The position numbers and the translations under genes are program-made. Shown here in pieces: positions 4,832 to 63,662 of a DNA stretch of 64,000 nucleotides. Numbering within the stretch: position 1 is the stretch's first letter; each line of letters starts with the position of its first letter. The stretch comes from Octopus vulgaris (taxonomy: Eukaryota), in the NCBI GenBank assembly GCA_951406725.2, contig OX597827.1, positions 68,448,001 to 68,512,000 of the forward strand, given 5' to 3'. A model generated the notes under the pieces. That model had not been told where the DNA came from and made no database searches. It saw only the letters and a program-made list of their open reading frames with translations.

Positions 4832-5029
4832 CTTTTACTTGTTTCAGTCATTTGACTGTGGACATGCTGGAGCATCGCATTTAGTCGAGCAAATCGACCC
4901 CAGGAATTATTCTTTGTAAGCTTAGTACTTAGTCTATCGGTCTCTTTTGTCGAACCGCTAAGTTACGGGGACGTAAACACACCAGCATCGGTTGTCAAGT
5001 GATGTTGGGGGACAAACACAGACACACAA

Positions 5030-5076
<47 letters not shown>

Positions 5077-5420
5077 AATATATATATAGGGAGAGTTGAC
5101 GAAAAGAACAAAAGACGGAGACAGGTGGTGTACAAAACAAACATATGTATTAGTATAACGGTCAGGAATAGAAAAAGTCTTTTACGTTTCGAGCCTAAGC
5201 TCTTCTACAGAAAGGGACACAGAAAAAAACAAGGAGAGAAAGAAAATGTGTGTAGTGGCTACCGATCTATCATGGCGACTGCCGGACAGAAAGCTCACAC
5301 ACGGGCTTCTTTCAGTTTCCTTCAACGAAATCCACTCACAAGGCTTTGGTCGGCCCGAGGCTATAGTAGAAGACACTTGCCCAAGGTGCCACGCAGTGGG
5401 ACTGAACCCGGAACCATGAA
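4832..5420 (-). mobile_element. SINE family A interrupted in its internal microsatellite by a Penelope terminal-repeat fragment
   Basis: Tail at 4832-5030 and body at 5300-5420 match other family A copies. Confidence 0.85.
5086..5290 (-). mobile_element. Solo Penelope-like terminal repeat (pLTR) fragment with hammerhead motif at 5178-5215
   Basis: Similar to 59250-59460; minus strand CCTTT CTGTAGA A GAG CTTAGG CTC GAAA CG TA AAAGA. Confidence 0.8.
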
Positions 5421-5454
5421 ATTTAGCTTAAGAAAAAAGAAAAAAAACCTGCTA

Positions 5455-5815
5455 ACATGGTTCCGGGTTCAGTCCCACTGCGTAGCATCTTGGGCAAGTG
5501 TCTTCTGCTATAGCCCCGGGCCGACCAATGCCTTGTGAGTGGATTTGGTAGACGGAAACTGAAAGAAGCCTGTCGTATATATGTACATATATATATAAGT
5601 GTGTGTGTATGTGTTTGTGTGTCTGTGTTTGTCCCCCTAGCATTGCTTGACAACCGATGCTGGTGTGTTTACGTCCCTGTCACTTAGCGGTTCGGCAAAA
5701 TGAACCGATAGAATAAGTACTGGGCTTACTGGGCTTACAATCCCGGGGTCGATTTGCTCGACTAATGGCGGTGCTCCAGCATGGCCGCAGTCAAATGACT
5801 GAAACAAGTAAAAGA
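5455..5815 (+). mobile_element. SINE family A
   Basis: B box, CORE-like block and GGCGGTGCTCCAGCATGGCCGCAGTCAAATGACTGAAAC tail. Confidence 0.9.
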
Positions 5816-22492: not shown

Positions 22493-22510
22493 ACATATAT
22501 ACATATATAC

Positions 22511-22713
22511 GCCATGATAGATCGTTAGCTCCTACACGCATTTTTTTTCTCTCCTTGCTTCTCTCCTTGTTTTTTTCTGTGTATCTTTCTGTCGAAGAGC
22601 GTAGGCTCGAAATGTAAAAGACTTTTTCTATTTCTGAGCGCTATACTAATACATTTGTTTGTTTGTACTCCACCTGCCTTCGTCTTTTGTTTATTTTCGT
22701 ACACTTTCCCTTC
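22511..22713 (+). mobile_element. Solo Penelope-like terminal repeat fragment with hammerhead motif at 22584-22621
   Basis: Colinear with 59250-59460; TCTTT CTGTCGA A GAG CGTAGG CTC GAAA TG TA AAAGA; flanked by TA repeats. Confidence 0.85.
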
Positions 22714-33932: not shown

Positions 33933-35062
33933 TGTTTCTTTATTAGCCACACCGGGCTGCACACAGATAGAACAAATTACAAGGTAGAGCTTTTCTTTTG
34001 AAGGGTTAGGAAAAAAAAGAAAAAGAAGGGGGGAGTTTCGATCAAAAGGGATCGTAAAAGGAGAGAAAGAGGACAAAAAAAAGGGGGTTTAAAAAAAAGG
34101 GGGGAGGAAAAAAATTGATCAATAGGGATCGTTATCACAGAAATGTCAATATGAAGTGTAAAGGGGAGGACAGGTGAGGTTTACCCGTGGAAAGAAAAGC
34201 CTACGGAAAAGACCACGGTAACCTCGGTCAATGAAGTCACATTTTATATTTCTTTTTTTTTTTTTTTTTGCAAATAAGCAACTCTCTGTTTTCGATTTCT
34301 GGGTTCATAGGACTATGCTCAAGGTGGCTTCGTCATTCATACGTGCCATTCTTGCTACATTCACCCATCTTTTTTTAAAACATTCGCTAGACAAAACTTG
34401 CCTCTCTACTCTCACTTTCCTTTTCAAGTGGTACTTGAAGAAGTTGATGAGAGATTGACCAGAGAGGAAAGTGTTTGTCTCCAATCCTTTCAGACGCGTC
34501 CACCAGATACATTCTTTCGCCATAGCCACAAGGATGATGAAAATAGCTCTTCCTTCCCGTTTGAAGGAAGGAGGCGTGACAATATTGACGATAGACTCAG
34601 CTGATAAACCGACTCGTCCCACACGTGACAGCAGTTGTTCGACACAAGCCCACAGGTCGGAAATTGTTGGACACTGAACGAGTGCGTGCAGAACGGTTTC
34701 GTCGCTCTGACCGCATCTCGGGCAGGTCGGCCCCGTGTTTCTCGAGCCGTGTCTGTAGAGCTTATCCCGAACGGGTAGCGCTTCTCGGTAGCACTGCCAG
34801 GCCAGGGATCTCTGGAAGTTGTCCATGGGCCCTGGCCCGAAAGTCGTCCTGAACAGGCGGGTCAGGTACTCCTCGTCGACGTCCAGGTTCGCCCCGAGCT
34901 CGTCGTCGTACCTCCCCTCCACTAAACCCCTATAGAATGCTTTGGTTGTGTTGAAGTCACTTAAGGTCGACCCAGGACGGCAGAGTTGCTTGAGAGCAAC
35001 GCGACACTCGCGGTGCCATTCGCCCTTCCTCGGCCTCTTTTTGATCCACGACTGCAGTTCGA
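33933..35062 (-). mobile_element. Tx1/L1-clade LINE, ORF2 C-terminus (zf-RVT-like) and 3' UTR, in (GATA)n
   Basis: ORF 34305-34922: WQCYREALPVRDKL...TCPRCGQSDETVLHALVQCP...AKECIWWTR; GATA repeats at both junctions. Confidence 0.85.
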
Positions 35063-35274
35063 GATAGATAGATAGATTGATAGATAGATATACAGATAGA
35101 TAGGTAAATAGATAGATAGACAGGTGGAATAATTATAATTCTTTCTGCCCCCTCATTAGACCATCATGCTGGGTTAGCTATCATAGTATTCCAAAATAAA
35201 AAGGTGATCCGTAAGGTTTCGATAGATAAATCACAACTCAAAAGTAAGATCCAGTAGGCTTATATATATATATA

Positions 35275-48776: not shown

Positions 48777-49615
<839 letters not shown>

Positions 49616-52710: not shown

Positions 52711-52758
<48 letters not shown>

Positions 52759-52899
52759 CGGGAAGCTTTATGAAAATAAACAAAAGACGAAGGCAGGTAG
52801 AATACAAACAAACAATTGTATATAGATATAACAATTATATATATATATATAAAAGAAGTCATGATAGAAAAGGCTAAAATAATTTTATAAAGAACATTT

Positions 52900-56367: not shown

Positions 56368-56720
56368 CCAACCACATGGTTGCGGGTTCAGTCCCACTGC
56401 GTGGCACCTTGGGCAAGTGTCTTCTACTATAGCCTCGGGCCGACCAAATCCTTGTGAGTAGATTTGGTAGACGGAAACTGAAAGAAGCCCGTCGTATGTA
56501 TATATATATATATATATGTATCCATTTGTGTGTGTCTGTGTTTGCCCAGAATGTTGGTGTGTTTACGTCCCCGTAATTTAGCCGTTCGGCAAAAGTGACC
56601 GATAGAATAAGTACTAAGCTTACAAAAAATAAGTCCTAGAAGTCGATTTGTTCGACTGAAGGCGCTGCTACAGCATGGCCGCAATCAAAATGACTGAAAC
56701 AAATAAAAGAATAAAAGAAT
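56368..56720 (+). mobile_element. SINE family A
   Basis: Matches other copies. Confidence 0.9.
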
Positions 56721-56843: not shown

Positions 56844-58491
56844 ATTGTCCAAGACCTCATCTCGTCCTCCCGTCTCCCCCGCACCGCATCCAACCTAATT
56901 GTGCGAACCCCACGTACCCCCACCATTTACTTCCTCCCCAAAATCCACAAACCCAACAACCCTGGCCGCCCCATCGTCTCCGCCTGTAACTGCCCCACGG
57001 AGCTCATCTCTAAATACCTCGACCGTGTCCTTGCCCCCCTAGTGGCATCTCTTCCCTCCCACATCCACGATACCAACCATGCTCTCCGGCTTTTCAACTC
57101 TTTCTCCTTTCCTCCCGGCTCCTCCAAAATCCTTTTTACTATGGACATCCAAAGCCTCTATACTGTTATCCCTCACCACGAAGGACTGCAGGCCCTTCGA
57201 CACTTTCTTGACCTCCGCTCTAACCCTGTACCTGACACCTCCACACTCATTCGTCTGGCCGAACTTGTCCTTACTCTGAACTGCTTCTCGTTCGCGGGCG
57301 AGTTCTACCATCAGGTCTCGGGAGTGGCCATGGGAACGCGAATGGGCCCCAACTATGCGAACCTGTTCGTTGGCTATGTTGAGGCCCAAATATTCTCTAA
57401 TTTCACTGGTCCCACTCCTGAACTATATGGTCGTTATATTGACGACATTATCGGTGCCACCTCACTCTCCCGCGAACATCTAGATTCCTTCCTCTCTTTC
57501 GTCCAATCTTTCCATCCAGCCCTCCACTTCACTTCCACTATCTCCAACACCTCTGTCTCCTTCCTCGACATTTCGGTTAGCATTCTTCACTCCACTCTTA
57601 CCACCTCCATTCACTACAAACACACAGACTCACACTCATACCTCAACTTCTCTTCCTCCCACCCAGAACACACCAAGCTTTCCATCCCCTATTCCCAATT
57701 CCTCCGTCTACGTAGGCTCTGTAGTGACGACCATGACTTTGAGACTCAGTCTCAACGTATGGCTCACCACTTCACCCTACGTGGATACCCCCTCACCACT
57801 ATCCACACCGCCCTTGCCAGAGCACGGTCCGTGGACCGTGTATCTGCTCTCTCTCCCCGAACCCGCCCTGTAGTCTCCCGCCTCCCTTTCCCCTCACTTA
57901 CCACCCCACGACCCTACGTCTCCAACGCACCATTCTTCGAGCTTTCCGTCATCTCCAGTCCGACCCGTCCACTTCACACCTCTTCCCTAACCGACCCCCT
58001 CCCCTCTTCAAACGAGCCCACAACCTTCGAGACCTTTTGGTCCATAGCTCCTTCCCTGACCCTACCTCCCAACCCGGCTCGTTCCCCTGCTCCCGCCCAC
58101 GTTGCCGCACTTGCCCTTACCTCTCCAACACCACCCGCCTCACTAGCACCCACCATCGACCCTATCCCATCATCCACTCCTTCACCTGCACCTCCAGCAA
58201 TATTATCTATTGCATCTCTTGCTCTCTCTGCAATTCCTTGTATATCGGACAAACGGGACGCCGCTTGGCTGACCGGTTCGCGGAACACCTTCGTGACATC
58301 CACCTTGCGAACGACACACCGGTCTCACGCCATTTCCGCTCCACCGGTCACTCCTTGCAACACCTATCTGTGTTCGGTTTGTCCTTACACAGAGGCCATC
58401 CGGATTCCCGTTTGCGCCGTGAACAGGAATTAATCTTCTCTCTTCGCTCTTATACGCCATTTGGTCTCAACTCTCCCCCCTCCTCATCTAA
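56844..58491 (+). pseudogene. PLE polyprotein: reverse transcriptase, Cys linker and GIY-YIG endonuclease; -1 frameshift near 57890
   Basis: YFLPKIHK, GRPIVS, DIQSLYT, GVAMGT, GRYIDD, FLDI; next frame from 57893 LTYHP...CSRPRCRTC...NIIYCISC..LYIGQT..RFAEH..PFGLN. Confidence 0.92.
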
Positions 58492-59322
58492 CCCCCCTCT
58501 CCCCCTCCTCACCTATCCTTTCTCCCCCCGACCCCTACTTCTACAGTCCTTCATCCTTTCACCCCTACTCCCCTTCCCTTCTTCCCTCTTTCTCCCTCCC
58601 TCTTCCCCTTCCCTCTGCTCCCTCACTCCCTCTCTCCCCCTCTCCCTCTTTCCTCCTTCATCCCCCTCCTCCCCTTCCTTCTCCCCCATCCTCTCCTCTT
58701 CCCCCTTCTCCTCCCCCTCTTCTTCCCCTCCCCTTCTCTCCCCCTCTTCTCCCCCTCCCCTCTTCTCCTCACTACACCACATGACTTTACACATCACATC
58801 ATATATGATGTGCCATACTAATACACACACCAACTAATACATACTAATACGTACTAATACATACCAGTACATACTAATACTTACACCAACCCTATACATA
58901 CACACGTCCAGACCCCGCATACGCACTTATACTCTCTCACACACACACACACACCTATACATACCAATACGTACTAATACATACTAATACATACTAATAC
59001 ATACACCAACCCCATACATACGCACGTCCAGACCAATCTTACGCACTAATACTCTCTCATACACACACACACACACACACACACCCTTATACATACTAAT
59101 ACATACACCAACCCTATACATACACACATCCAGACCCCTCCCACGCACTTTTAGCTGGTCCCTCAACCCTTTTATCAACCCTATTATCTCCCCTTATTTC
59201 GCTCTCGCGTCTCATGTTTGATCTTTGACCTCTGGCCGAAATCAGATCGCCATGTTGATTCGTTAGCTACTGCACGCATTTTTTTTTCTCTCCTTCTTTC
59301 TGTGTTTTTCTCTCTCTGTGTA

Positions 59323-59360
59323 TCTTTCTGTTGAAGAGCGTAGGCTCGAAACGTTAAAGA
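59323..59360 (+). ncRNA. Minimal hammerhead motif in the PLE terminal repeat, A6U core
   Basis: TCTTT CTGTTGA A GAG CGTAGG CTC GAAA CG TT AAAGA. Confidence 0.7.
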
Positions 59361-59457
59361 CTTGTTTTATTTATATTTCCTGAGCGCCATACTAATACAA
59401 TTGTTCGTTTGTTTTCCACCTGCCTTCGTCTTTTGTTTATTTTCATAAAGCTTCCCG

Positions 59458-59526
<69 letters not shown>

Positions 59527-61561: not shown

Positions 61562-61767
61562 TAAAGTTAATCCAAACATGAAAACACAAAGAGAAAACAC
61601 AACACTGCGAGGACGTGGAACAAGTACAGTGTTATTGGACGCTCAGGAAAGGAAAGAAAAAAGGAGGACTTAACGTTTCGAGCGGAGCTCTTCGTCAGAA
61701 ACATAGAAAAAGGAAAGATCCAAGGAAGGAAGACGGAGAAAGAAAATCACCAACGATACAAACGCGG

Positions 61768-61770
<3 letters not shown>
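61562..61770 (-). mobile_element. PLE terminal-repeat fragment of a related family with canonical hammerhead at 61669-61702
   Basis: GTTT CTGACGA A GAGC TCC GCTC GAAA CG TT AAG; downstream TTCCTGAGCG..AATA shared with 59.4 kb; (TA)n on both sides. Confidence 0.8.
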
Positions 61771-61852
<82 letters not shown>

Positions 61853-62102: not shown

Positions 62103-62319
62103 TTTTACTCTTTTACTCTTTTACTTGTTTCAGTCATTTGACTGCGGCCATGCTGGAGCACCGCCTTTAGTCGAGCAATTCGACCCCGGGACTTATTCTT
62201 TGTAAGCCCAGTACTTATTCTATCGGTCTCTTTTGCTGAACCGCTAAGTAACGGGACGTAAACACACCACCATCGATTGTCAAGCAATGGTGGGGGGACA
62301 AACACGGACACACAAACAT

Positions 62320-62804: not shown

Positions 62805-62955
62805 TCTATTATATAAAATTCGTTCTGTCTGTCTTTGTGTGTGTGTCTTCTAGGATCTCGGGCATCCTCCATCTGATTGCACTCAAATTTGACATGTAGA
62901 TACCGACGGTATCAGAGCGTGTATAAGTCTTGAAAAAATTACGTCTGAATCGATT
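62805..62955 (+). mobile_element. Possible Helitron 5' end
   Basis: A|TCTATTATATAAAA followed by CTGTCTGTCT, like the 9-kb units; no 3' end seen. Confidence 0.4.
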
Positions 62956-63265
62956 AATTGATGAAGCTTAGTTTTTGATGAATTGAACGTCGCAAGCCAT
63001 CTCCTACCCCACTCAACAATAGATCGAAGATCATTCTCAAGGTTAGGAGCGATCTCAACCTTATCAGTCGAGTCGTCAGATTTGTCCAAACAAGAACACA
63101 AAGTAGAGTCATCAGCATAATGATCAGGCAGATCATTGATAAAAAGAAGAAAAAGAGTTGGGCCCAGGATAGATCCTTGGGGAACCCCAGCATTAATAGA
63201 ATAACTAGATGAAGATTGATCATCAAGAACAACCTTGATCCTACGGTTATAAAAGGAAAGAGGGT
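62955..63265 (-). pseudogene. LINE reverse transcriptase fragment (CR1/L2/Jockey group)
   Basis: GVPQGSILGPTLFLLFINDL, YADD and FNSSKTK motifs with an internal deletion. Confidence 0.9.
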
Positions 63266-63341
63266 GAAAACTGCTTAGCATTTTGTCCGGCATGCTAACG
63301 ATTCTGCCAGCTCGCGGCCTTAACTTCTGTAAATAATAATG

Positions 63342-63406
<65 letters not shown>

Positions 63407-63410
<4 letters not shown>

Positions 63411-63662
63411 TGTTTGTTTTAAACCTTGAGATTACATAGAACGCAAAATACTTTCTATGTAATCTCAAGGTTTAAAACAAACATTTTTTAAAAAACTTAT
63501 TTATTAGACATTCACTAGTACAACACCAAAAATACCCCAAATATATGGCACACTAGGCATAACAACAACGTGAACTTCCAACCTGTTGTCTCTTGAGGTC
63601 TCTGGGTGAGACTTGGAGCCAACTTGTACAAAAATAAAGCAAAAGTCAAACATAGAATAATA
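63407..63662 (+). mobile_element. Probable R4/Dong-like LINE 3' end next to (TAA)n, with a 35-bp 5' inversion
   Basis: RKILSM* at 63442-63462, then UTR ending AATAATAA; perfect arms 63407-63441 / 63453-63487; clade call is recall-based. Confidence 0.45.

Follow-up and report, generated by a model that had tools for sequence, protein, structure and literature searches.

A hammerhead motif with uridine at core position 6 appears to be a heritable, selected variant in a Penelope-like retroelement of Octopus vulgaris

Is a hammerhead motif that carries uridine in place of the conserved A6 a decayed ribozyme, or a core variant that a retroelement inherits and keeps? The question was raised by a motif in a 64,000-nt stretch of Octopus vulgaris DNA (contig OX597827.1), referred to below as the window. 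This minimal type-I hammerhead motif (59320–59361, plus strand), laid out as in Fig. S3 of PMC4209133, consists of the helix I 5′ strand UCUUU (59323–59327), the core C3–A9, CUGUUGA (59328–59334), with U6 at 59331 in place of the conserved A6, an extra A between A9 and G10.1 (59335), helix II GAGC-GUAG-GCUC (59336–59347; loop GUAG, 59340–59343), G12–A14, GAA (59348–59350), a palindromic, loopless helix III, ACGU (59351–59354), U as H17 (59355), and the helix I 3′ strand AAAGA (59356–59360), all on the plus strand. According to hammerhead numbering, cleavage is predicted after H17, between 59355 and 59356, at a distance of about 103 nt upstream from the 3′ end of the element. The first-pass annotation had reported two further U6 cores in the window, and all three were present: CTGTTGA at 59328–59334 (+), CTGTCGA in a solo terminal-repeat copy at 22510–22710 (+; C3 at 22589, N7 = C, with a C-to-T change in helix III), and CTGTAGA in a solo terminal-repeat copy at 5086–5278 (−; C3 at 5210, N7 = A). 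Helices I and II were kept as it had stated, helix II GAGC/GCUC being whole in 3/3 U6 copies and helix I having 5, 5, and 4 pairs. A 3′-only fragment of the U6-family repeat, without the hammerhead, lies at 52756–52860 (−). SINE-like abundant repeat copies were seen at window positions 4870–5000, 5290–5560, 56370–56710, and 62130–62200, and the U6 copy at 5210 is embedded in a cluster of such repeats.

Comparison with the core C3 U4 G5 A6 N7 G8 A9 revealed agreement at positions 3, 4, 5, 8, and 9 and a deviation at position 6 (U); G12 A13 A14, A15.1–U16.1, and a non-G H17 were also found in the U6 family. Helices I (4–5 bp) and II (4 bp) flank the core and were invariant over the eight subfamilies described below, the extra base 9/10.1 was A in 137 of 144 copies chosen by their flank, 15.2–16.2 is palindromic (ACGU), and loop III is absent. 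At E ≤ 10, Rfam matched neither the U6 motif nor the canonical motif of a sister family to any hammerhead model; it therefore cannot tell the two apart, and the hammerhead assignment rests on the core letters and the helices. Searched with the whole window, Rfam returned microRNA-type hits driven by microsatellites and none on the motif among the 150 of 495 matches listed, and the repeat search of the window was dominated by microsatellites.

A 5′-truncated Penelope-like ORF (56846–58834, +) precedes the motif by roughly 500 nt and is 97.4% identical to the full-length copy L115 over 2695 nt. The ORF comprises an RT part (56850–57920, +; relatives carry PF00078) and, in the frame 57743–58834 (+), a C-X4-C-XX-C linker and a GIY-YIG endonuclease (relatives carry PF01541), with a frame change near 57890 between the RT and the linker/endonuclease. 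The 3′ terminal region, or pseudo-LTR (58835–59459, +), 97.8% identical to the upstream repeat of L115, contains CATACTAATA-type repeats and then a conserved repeat of ~200 nt, and the element's common 3′ end abuts a (TA)n tract, which in the window copy is at 59460. Imperfect CATACTAATA/ACAC repeats occupy window positions 58835–59130 and occur in both terminal repeats of full-length copies. The 150 genomic matches to the endonuclease region that were scored, from 17,861 candidates, were all 100% identical, and the element family is thus considered young. All 30 loci drawn from the endonuclease matches carried the U6 motif behind the ORF, which bears out its earlier placement in a terminal repeat, here that of a Penelope-like element. 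Twelve tandem units of 4449–4573 nt had the U6 motif at both ends, that is, in both terminal repeats around the ORF as in the minimal metazoan Penelope-like hammerheads, and 11 of them contained ATG frames of 973–1152 aa. One ORF holding RT and, at its C terminus, a GIY-YIG endonuclease, in a tandem structure with pseudo-LTRs, as found here, is the organization of an EN+ Penelope-like element. No second hammerhead was found in the element (one unit scanned, a descriptor run over the 30 loci, and a search for sense-strand canonical cores), and the PDB yielded no relative of its protein.

The element had been labelled Neptune from the outset. Neptune elements are recognized by a (TA)n target bias and by the CX2-5CxxC linker that joins RT to endonuclease, a linker also present in Nematis (PMC8557442). 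The linker found here, C-SRPR-C-RT-C, is of this type, and the copies end before (TA)n; by these two characters, the linker being common to Nematis, the Neptune label is supported. No named reference sequence was among the 120 homologues listed. Some terminal-repeat pairs lie close together (L016/L017 at C1:1878302 and 1878453, L024/L023, L027/L028), some of them inverted and 150 nt apart, and resemble descriptions of Penelope insertions. The window also contains what we take to be fragments of a non-LTR RT or zinc-binding region (34308–35132, −), of the RT of another element (62886–63431, −), and of a mariner-like N-terminus (49214–49400, −).

A genome-wide pattern of 27 places (2.8 Gb; exact match, positions 6 and 7 free) gave 21,760 matches and its reversed control none, so the motif is not a chance occurrence. 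Position 6 was U in 20,811 of these matches (95.6%; obtained by subtracting the others), A in 291, and C or G in 658, with G in 6 of the 100 matches listed for the last class. This count, which the first-pass annotation had set as the check on its claim, identified U6 as the family consensus and refuted A6 in that role. The control site U4 had 459 changed matches, of the same order as the changes at position 6; likewise, the 291 U6-to-A matches were of the same order as those with U4-to-A (~190, estimated by eye from 41 of 100 listed), and lie near the mutation background. For the same reason, an excess that would mark favoured A6 revertants was considered and set aside, the two figures not being decisive. 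U6-to-C matches (~620) were nearly three times as many as U4-to-C matches (~225), possibly as a context effect or through small C6 sublineages.

Because exact patterns fix the remaining core letters, a second sample was drawn by the 3′ flank only. It comprised 185 copies from one contig, with older subfamilies over-represented, of which 144 aligned over both flanks and 41, truncated or poorly aligned, were dropped. Position 6 in the 144 copies was U in 134, C in 6, A in 3, and a gap in 1; N7 was U in 55, A in 48, G in 21, C in 18, and a gap in 2; and H17 was A in 112, U in 23, G in 3, C in 2, and a gap in 4. The remaining core positions retained their letter in 89–99%, with the minimum at the CpG G12, and no core column had a second allele at 10% or above. 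Contigs from runs labelled as other organisms also contained the repeat; position 6 and the known variation at N7 are both absent from their difference tables, which leaves single pieces as the source of information, and in organisms E and F one piece each spans position 6 with the letter unchanged. These single pieces suggest that U6 extends beyond one species.

For the history of the motif, 233 copies with at most four substitutions in the motif were clustered on flank columns only; 169 fell into eight groups and 64 into clusters of fewer than five. The eight subfamilies, 10.5% to 1.7% from their own consensus, formed roughly one ladder (FastTree topology), and all eight carried U6. Along the ladder, the letters at N7 were C, U, U, C, G, A, U, U; at H17 they were A, A, A, A, U, A, A, U. 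N7 had been described as varying freely: all four letters do occur in the family, but N7 was fixed inside each subfamily and changed only between subfamilies. Across the eight subfamilies, changes were found at 0/12 core, 0/8 helix II, 0/8 helix I, 0/2 helix III, and 0/4 loop II positions, making 0/34 structured positions as opposed to 39/96 flank columns. The difference between core and flank was significant (Fisher p = 0.004; 0.008 at looser clustering), and with the flanks averaging 0.625 changes per site, the core should have changed about 7.5 times, whereas no change was observed; since flank rates were uneven, with 57/96 columns invariant, including the anchor used to choose copies, these P values are indicative only. 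The conservation of the helices relative to the flanks, together with the U6 consensus, agrees with the proposal of the first-pass annotation that the variant is heritable and not a product of decay.

U6 motifs were also found behind ORF remnants that share only 54–77% identity with the young protein, which makes U6 old. In a tree with positions 6 and 7 masked, the sampled A6 and C6 copies were spread over the subfamilies and formed no clade. U6 in all subfamilies, the old ORF remnants, the scattered A6 and C6 copies, and the unchanged structured positions together argue that A6U happened once, before the oldest sampled subfamily, and that the motif remained under purifying selection from then on. 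The A6 copies were considered as an ancestral or revertant subfamily and rejected, as they make up no clade and their N7 is mostly that of the host subfamily; in the oldest group A6 occurred in 6 of the 100 matches listed, which leaves room for a very small A6 sublineage. A single site has a probability of 0.54 of staying unchanged by chance. The constraint thus applies to the core as a whole, and a preference for U over A does not follow from it.

N7 and H17 were the sole movers, an outcome expected once in 630 for two named positions of 36, and they are the positions written N and H in the published consensus (PMC4209133). H17 changed three times, always between A and U and never to G. We consider it very improbable that the block is a dead motif that decays or hitchhikes neutrally, or one conserved as DNA (a promoter or an endonuclease site). 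A single origin of U6 means that fixation alone needs no selection, and promoters do reside in Penelope terminal repeats (PMC6765202); however, neutrality is rejected by the absence of change at the structured positions while 32/96 flank columns differ between the oldest and youngest subfamilies, and there is no reason to expect of a DNA site that precisely N7 and H17 would be free or that helix I would covary.

N7 changed five times in seven steps, compared with at most four changes in any flank column and the flank mean given above (P about 5e-4 at the flank rate; post hoc), possibly reflecting either tuning or a mutational hot spot. Such tuning beside U6 might be compensatory, and U6 could be fully compensated by its context (the extra A, the GUAG loop, N7, dimer geometry, Mn2+ or protein), perhaps to the point of being optimal. 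We hold this to be unlikely. No A6 revertant lineage has expanded although such mutants arise (the 291 matches, those sampled being scattered), as compensation would predict, and Mn2+ rescues an A6C hammerhead (PMC7151607); against this, U6 comes with no further change in the core, helix II matches that of the A6 sister family, the test on N7 was made post hoc, and a pairwise mutational scan found no rescue inside the CUGA turn except by a C3–G8 swap (PMC9901934).

The sister family offers a second instance of change in the same turn. Its repeat at 61575–61775 (−; boundaries approximate) belongs to the older U4 subfamilies and contains a hammerhead motif at ~61666–61702 (−) with the core CUGACGA (C3 at 61698) and loop II UCC. 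The first-pass annotation had contrasted this family with the U6 family as canonical; this stands for the copy at 61698 and for position 6, but not for the family core, which is mostly CCGACGA (U4C). The U4 pattern had 3,983 matches, with A at position 6 in 96 and U in none of the 100 listed, compared with 8,828 matches genome-wide for the C4 pattern, and position 4 was C in 28 of 39 flank-chosen copies. U4C marks the youngest subfamilies of the sister family, the largest among them. Two related lineages thus appear each to have fixed a different change in the CUGA turn, A6U and U4C. Pair 2.4–1.4 of helix I, C-G in the U6 family, is G-C or G·U in the sister family, which reads as one compensatory pair between families. 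Other hammerhead families, with canonical A6 and another helix II, and one copy that had a G3–C8 swapped core, were noted at L094 (699 and 3205, −), L177, and L181 and in the motif census.

Such a pair of turn changes would also arise if the hammerhead fold were kept as a signal by which the element's RT-endonuclease, or a host protein, binds or is positioned, with cutting no longer needed and the turn residues free to drift. We give this a real though minority chance of being correct. Both lineages amplified strongly with different turn changes (20,811 and 8,828 matches for A6U and U4C); Naiads spread without canonical hammerheads (PMC8557442); in the Anolis element, cleavage is dispensable for insertion in vitro, cleavage mutants inserting normally, and no RNA reads are reported to end at the site (PMC11167929). 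Loop II was invariant across the eight subfamilies, as is also expected of a protein-binding site. The record of copy ends points the same way. Of 172 copies sampled in the U6 family, 144 extend across the predicted cut, 2 start no more than 3 nt from it, and 26 start downstream; the corresponding numbers in the sister family are 44, 2, and 6 of 52. Copy 5′ ends were therefore dropped as a record of cleavage, as neither family has a pile-up at the cut above approximately the local background, and mostly read-through copies fit both uncut and re-ligated templates. A fold that does not cut accounts just as well for both changes in the turn, the unvarying loop, and the missing ends. On the other side, none of the directly catalytic residues changed anywhere along the ladder and H17 did not turn into G in any subfamily, and both fixed changes fall at positions with recorded natural, weakly active variants.

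The explanation that we favour, with evenly balanced confidence, is that the U6 motif, carried by a Penelope-like element active in recent times, is a ribozyme that has been slowed and is probably assisted by protein; this explanation is preferred because all catalytic residues stayed fixed and only N7 and H17 moved. The source lineage would have fixed A6U once, long ago, and retained it with the remaining core. Cleavage by the U6 ribozyme would still occur, if seldom or late, and probably in a dimer or with the element's protein assisting. Synthesis of cDNA must presumably start at the element's 3′ end, beyond the predicted cut, and a cut before reverse transcription would sever this start site from the ORF, so that fast cleavage would be costly and a slowing change tolerated. 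A residual need, such as late processing, end formation, or circularization of tandem transcripts, would hold G5, G8, A9, G12, A13, A14, and the helices fixed. We infer the slowing, the cost of early cleavage, and the protein's assistance. Natural A6C and U4C hammerheads keep a low but real activity (PMC3088659, PMC7151607). A6C in a fast hammerhead lowered the rate from 0.3 to 3.55e-6 per min at 0.3 mM Mg2+, with rescue by Mn2+ (PMC7151607), and changes in the CUGA turn gave low activity in a mutational scan (PMC9901934); published position-6 changes thus slow hammerheads strongly, not always to zero. Minimal hammerheads are slow already (PMC4209133), so A6U on top may leave no activity. The Penelope-like hammerhead of Anolis cleaved only when its protein was added (PMC11167929). 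A broader form of the slowed-ribozyme explanation, which we offer tentatively and regard as doubtful, is that slow ribozymes are selected in Penelope-like elements generally: damping the CUGA turn (A6U, U4C) with the catalytic guanosines kept would amplify best, and protein or Mn2+ would switch the ribozyme on.

Predicted folds suggest little more on this point. A double-hammerhead dimer pairing can be drawn, 10–15 kcal/mol above the predicted dimer minimum in a model that ignores tertiary contacts. A downstream GAGCG (59381–59386, +), conserved in all subfamily consensuses of both families, is the same as the 5′ strand of helix II and can pair with the helix II 3′ strand; an alternative, non-hammerhead fold was predicted in some folds only. 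In this alternative pairing, the base facing G12 alternates between C and U. U6 raised G5–C15.2 mispairing in 8/8 short constructs, favouring a mispaired rod. A role of U6 as an off-state lock was rejected, as the cost of the open form rose in just 5/8 and the effect faded with longer context. Arguments from predicted folds, whether from the mispaired rod or from GAGCG competition, are accordingly weak.

No natural A6U hammerhead was found in the literature searched. The likeliest prior report, by Lunse, Weinberg and Breaker in 2017, which reportedly describes dimer-cleaving short-stem-III hammerhead variants of Penelope-like elements, lies outside this comparison, and the novelty of natural A6U is provisional. 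Passages of a 2026 retrozyme preprint (10.64898/2026.07.22.740005) leave core variants untouched. The core descriptor in PMC8557442 requires CUGANGA, so U6-type families would be missed, and the same report calls the role of hammerheads in Penelope-like elements unclear. As judged from genomic copies, the A6U hammerhead appears to be a real, heritable, selected variant. It amounts to an experiment set up by nature: an autonomous element, active in recent times, bears a core change that is damaging by the textbook; its eight source subfamilies form a dated ladder; copies with A6 or C6 occur naturally and can serve as controls; and the sister lineage carries another core change. Should U6 cleave, A6 would not be obligatory and surveys that rely on CUGANGA would overlook large families; should it not, the hammerhead fold would be conserved for some role in retrotransposition other than catalysis. 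If slow ribozymes are indeed selected, U6 would stand as the first hammerhead with a natural uridine at position 6, and the genome's commonest hammerhead would be invisible to searches that rely on CUGANGA.

Among known systems, the closest are the minimal type-I hammerheads of metazoan Penelope-like elements (PMC4209133), which have the same placement in the terminal repeat on the sense strand and share the extra base 9/10.1, G10.1–C11.1, a palindromic loopless helix III, and a U-rich 5′ flank; the Acropora Neptune motif of that study (CUGACGAA GGGC UAAC GCUC) is close to the sister family. In contrast to the U6 family, all 56 motifs in its Fig. S3, in which no cephalopod is listed, have A6, and the core change named in its text is U3–A8, unlike A6U; as the search was built on the conserved core, it could miss U6. 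A natural change at position 6 is known from the phage Bcep176 A6C hammerhead, weak in Mg2+ and active in Mn2+ (PMC3088659, PMC7151607). That case, as described there, is a single phage sequence with C, whereas here a pyrimidine at position 6 is fixed in an animal retroelement lineage that numbers over 20,000 copies. In the Poseidon element PAc of Anolis (PMC11167929), the terminal repeat likewise contains a hammerhead that lies upstream of the site where RT starts, and in that system uncut RNA is the main template and no ends were seen at the cut. PAc differs in belonging to the Poseidon clade, with no A6 change reported in the passages of that study compared here, and its motif overlaps the start codon, whereas the ATG frames of the octopus element begin 480–1020 nt downstream of the motif.
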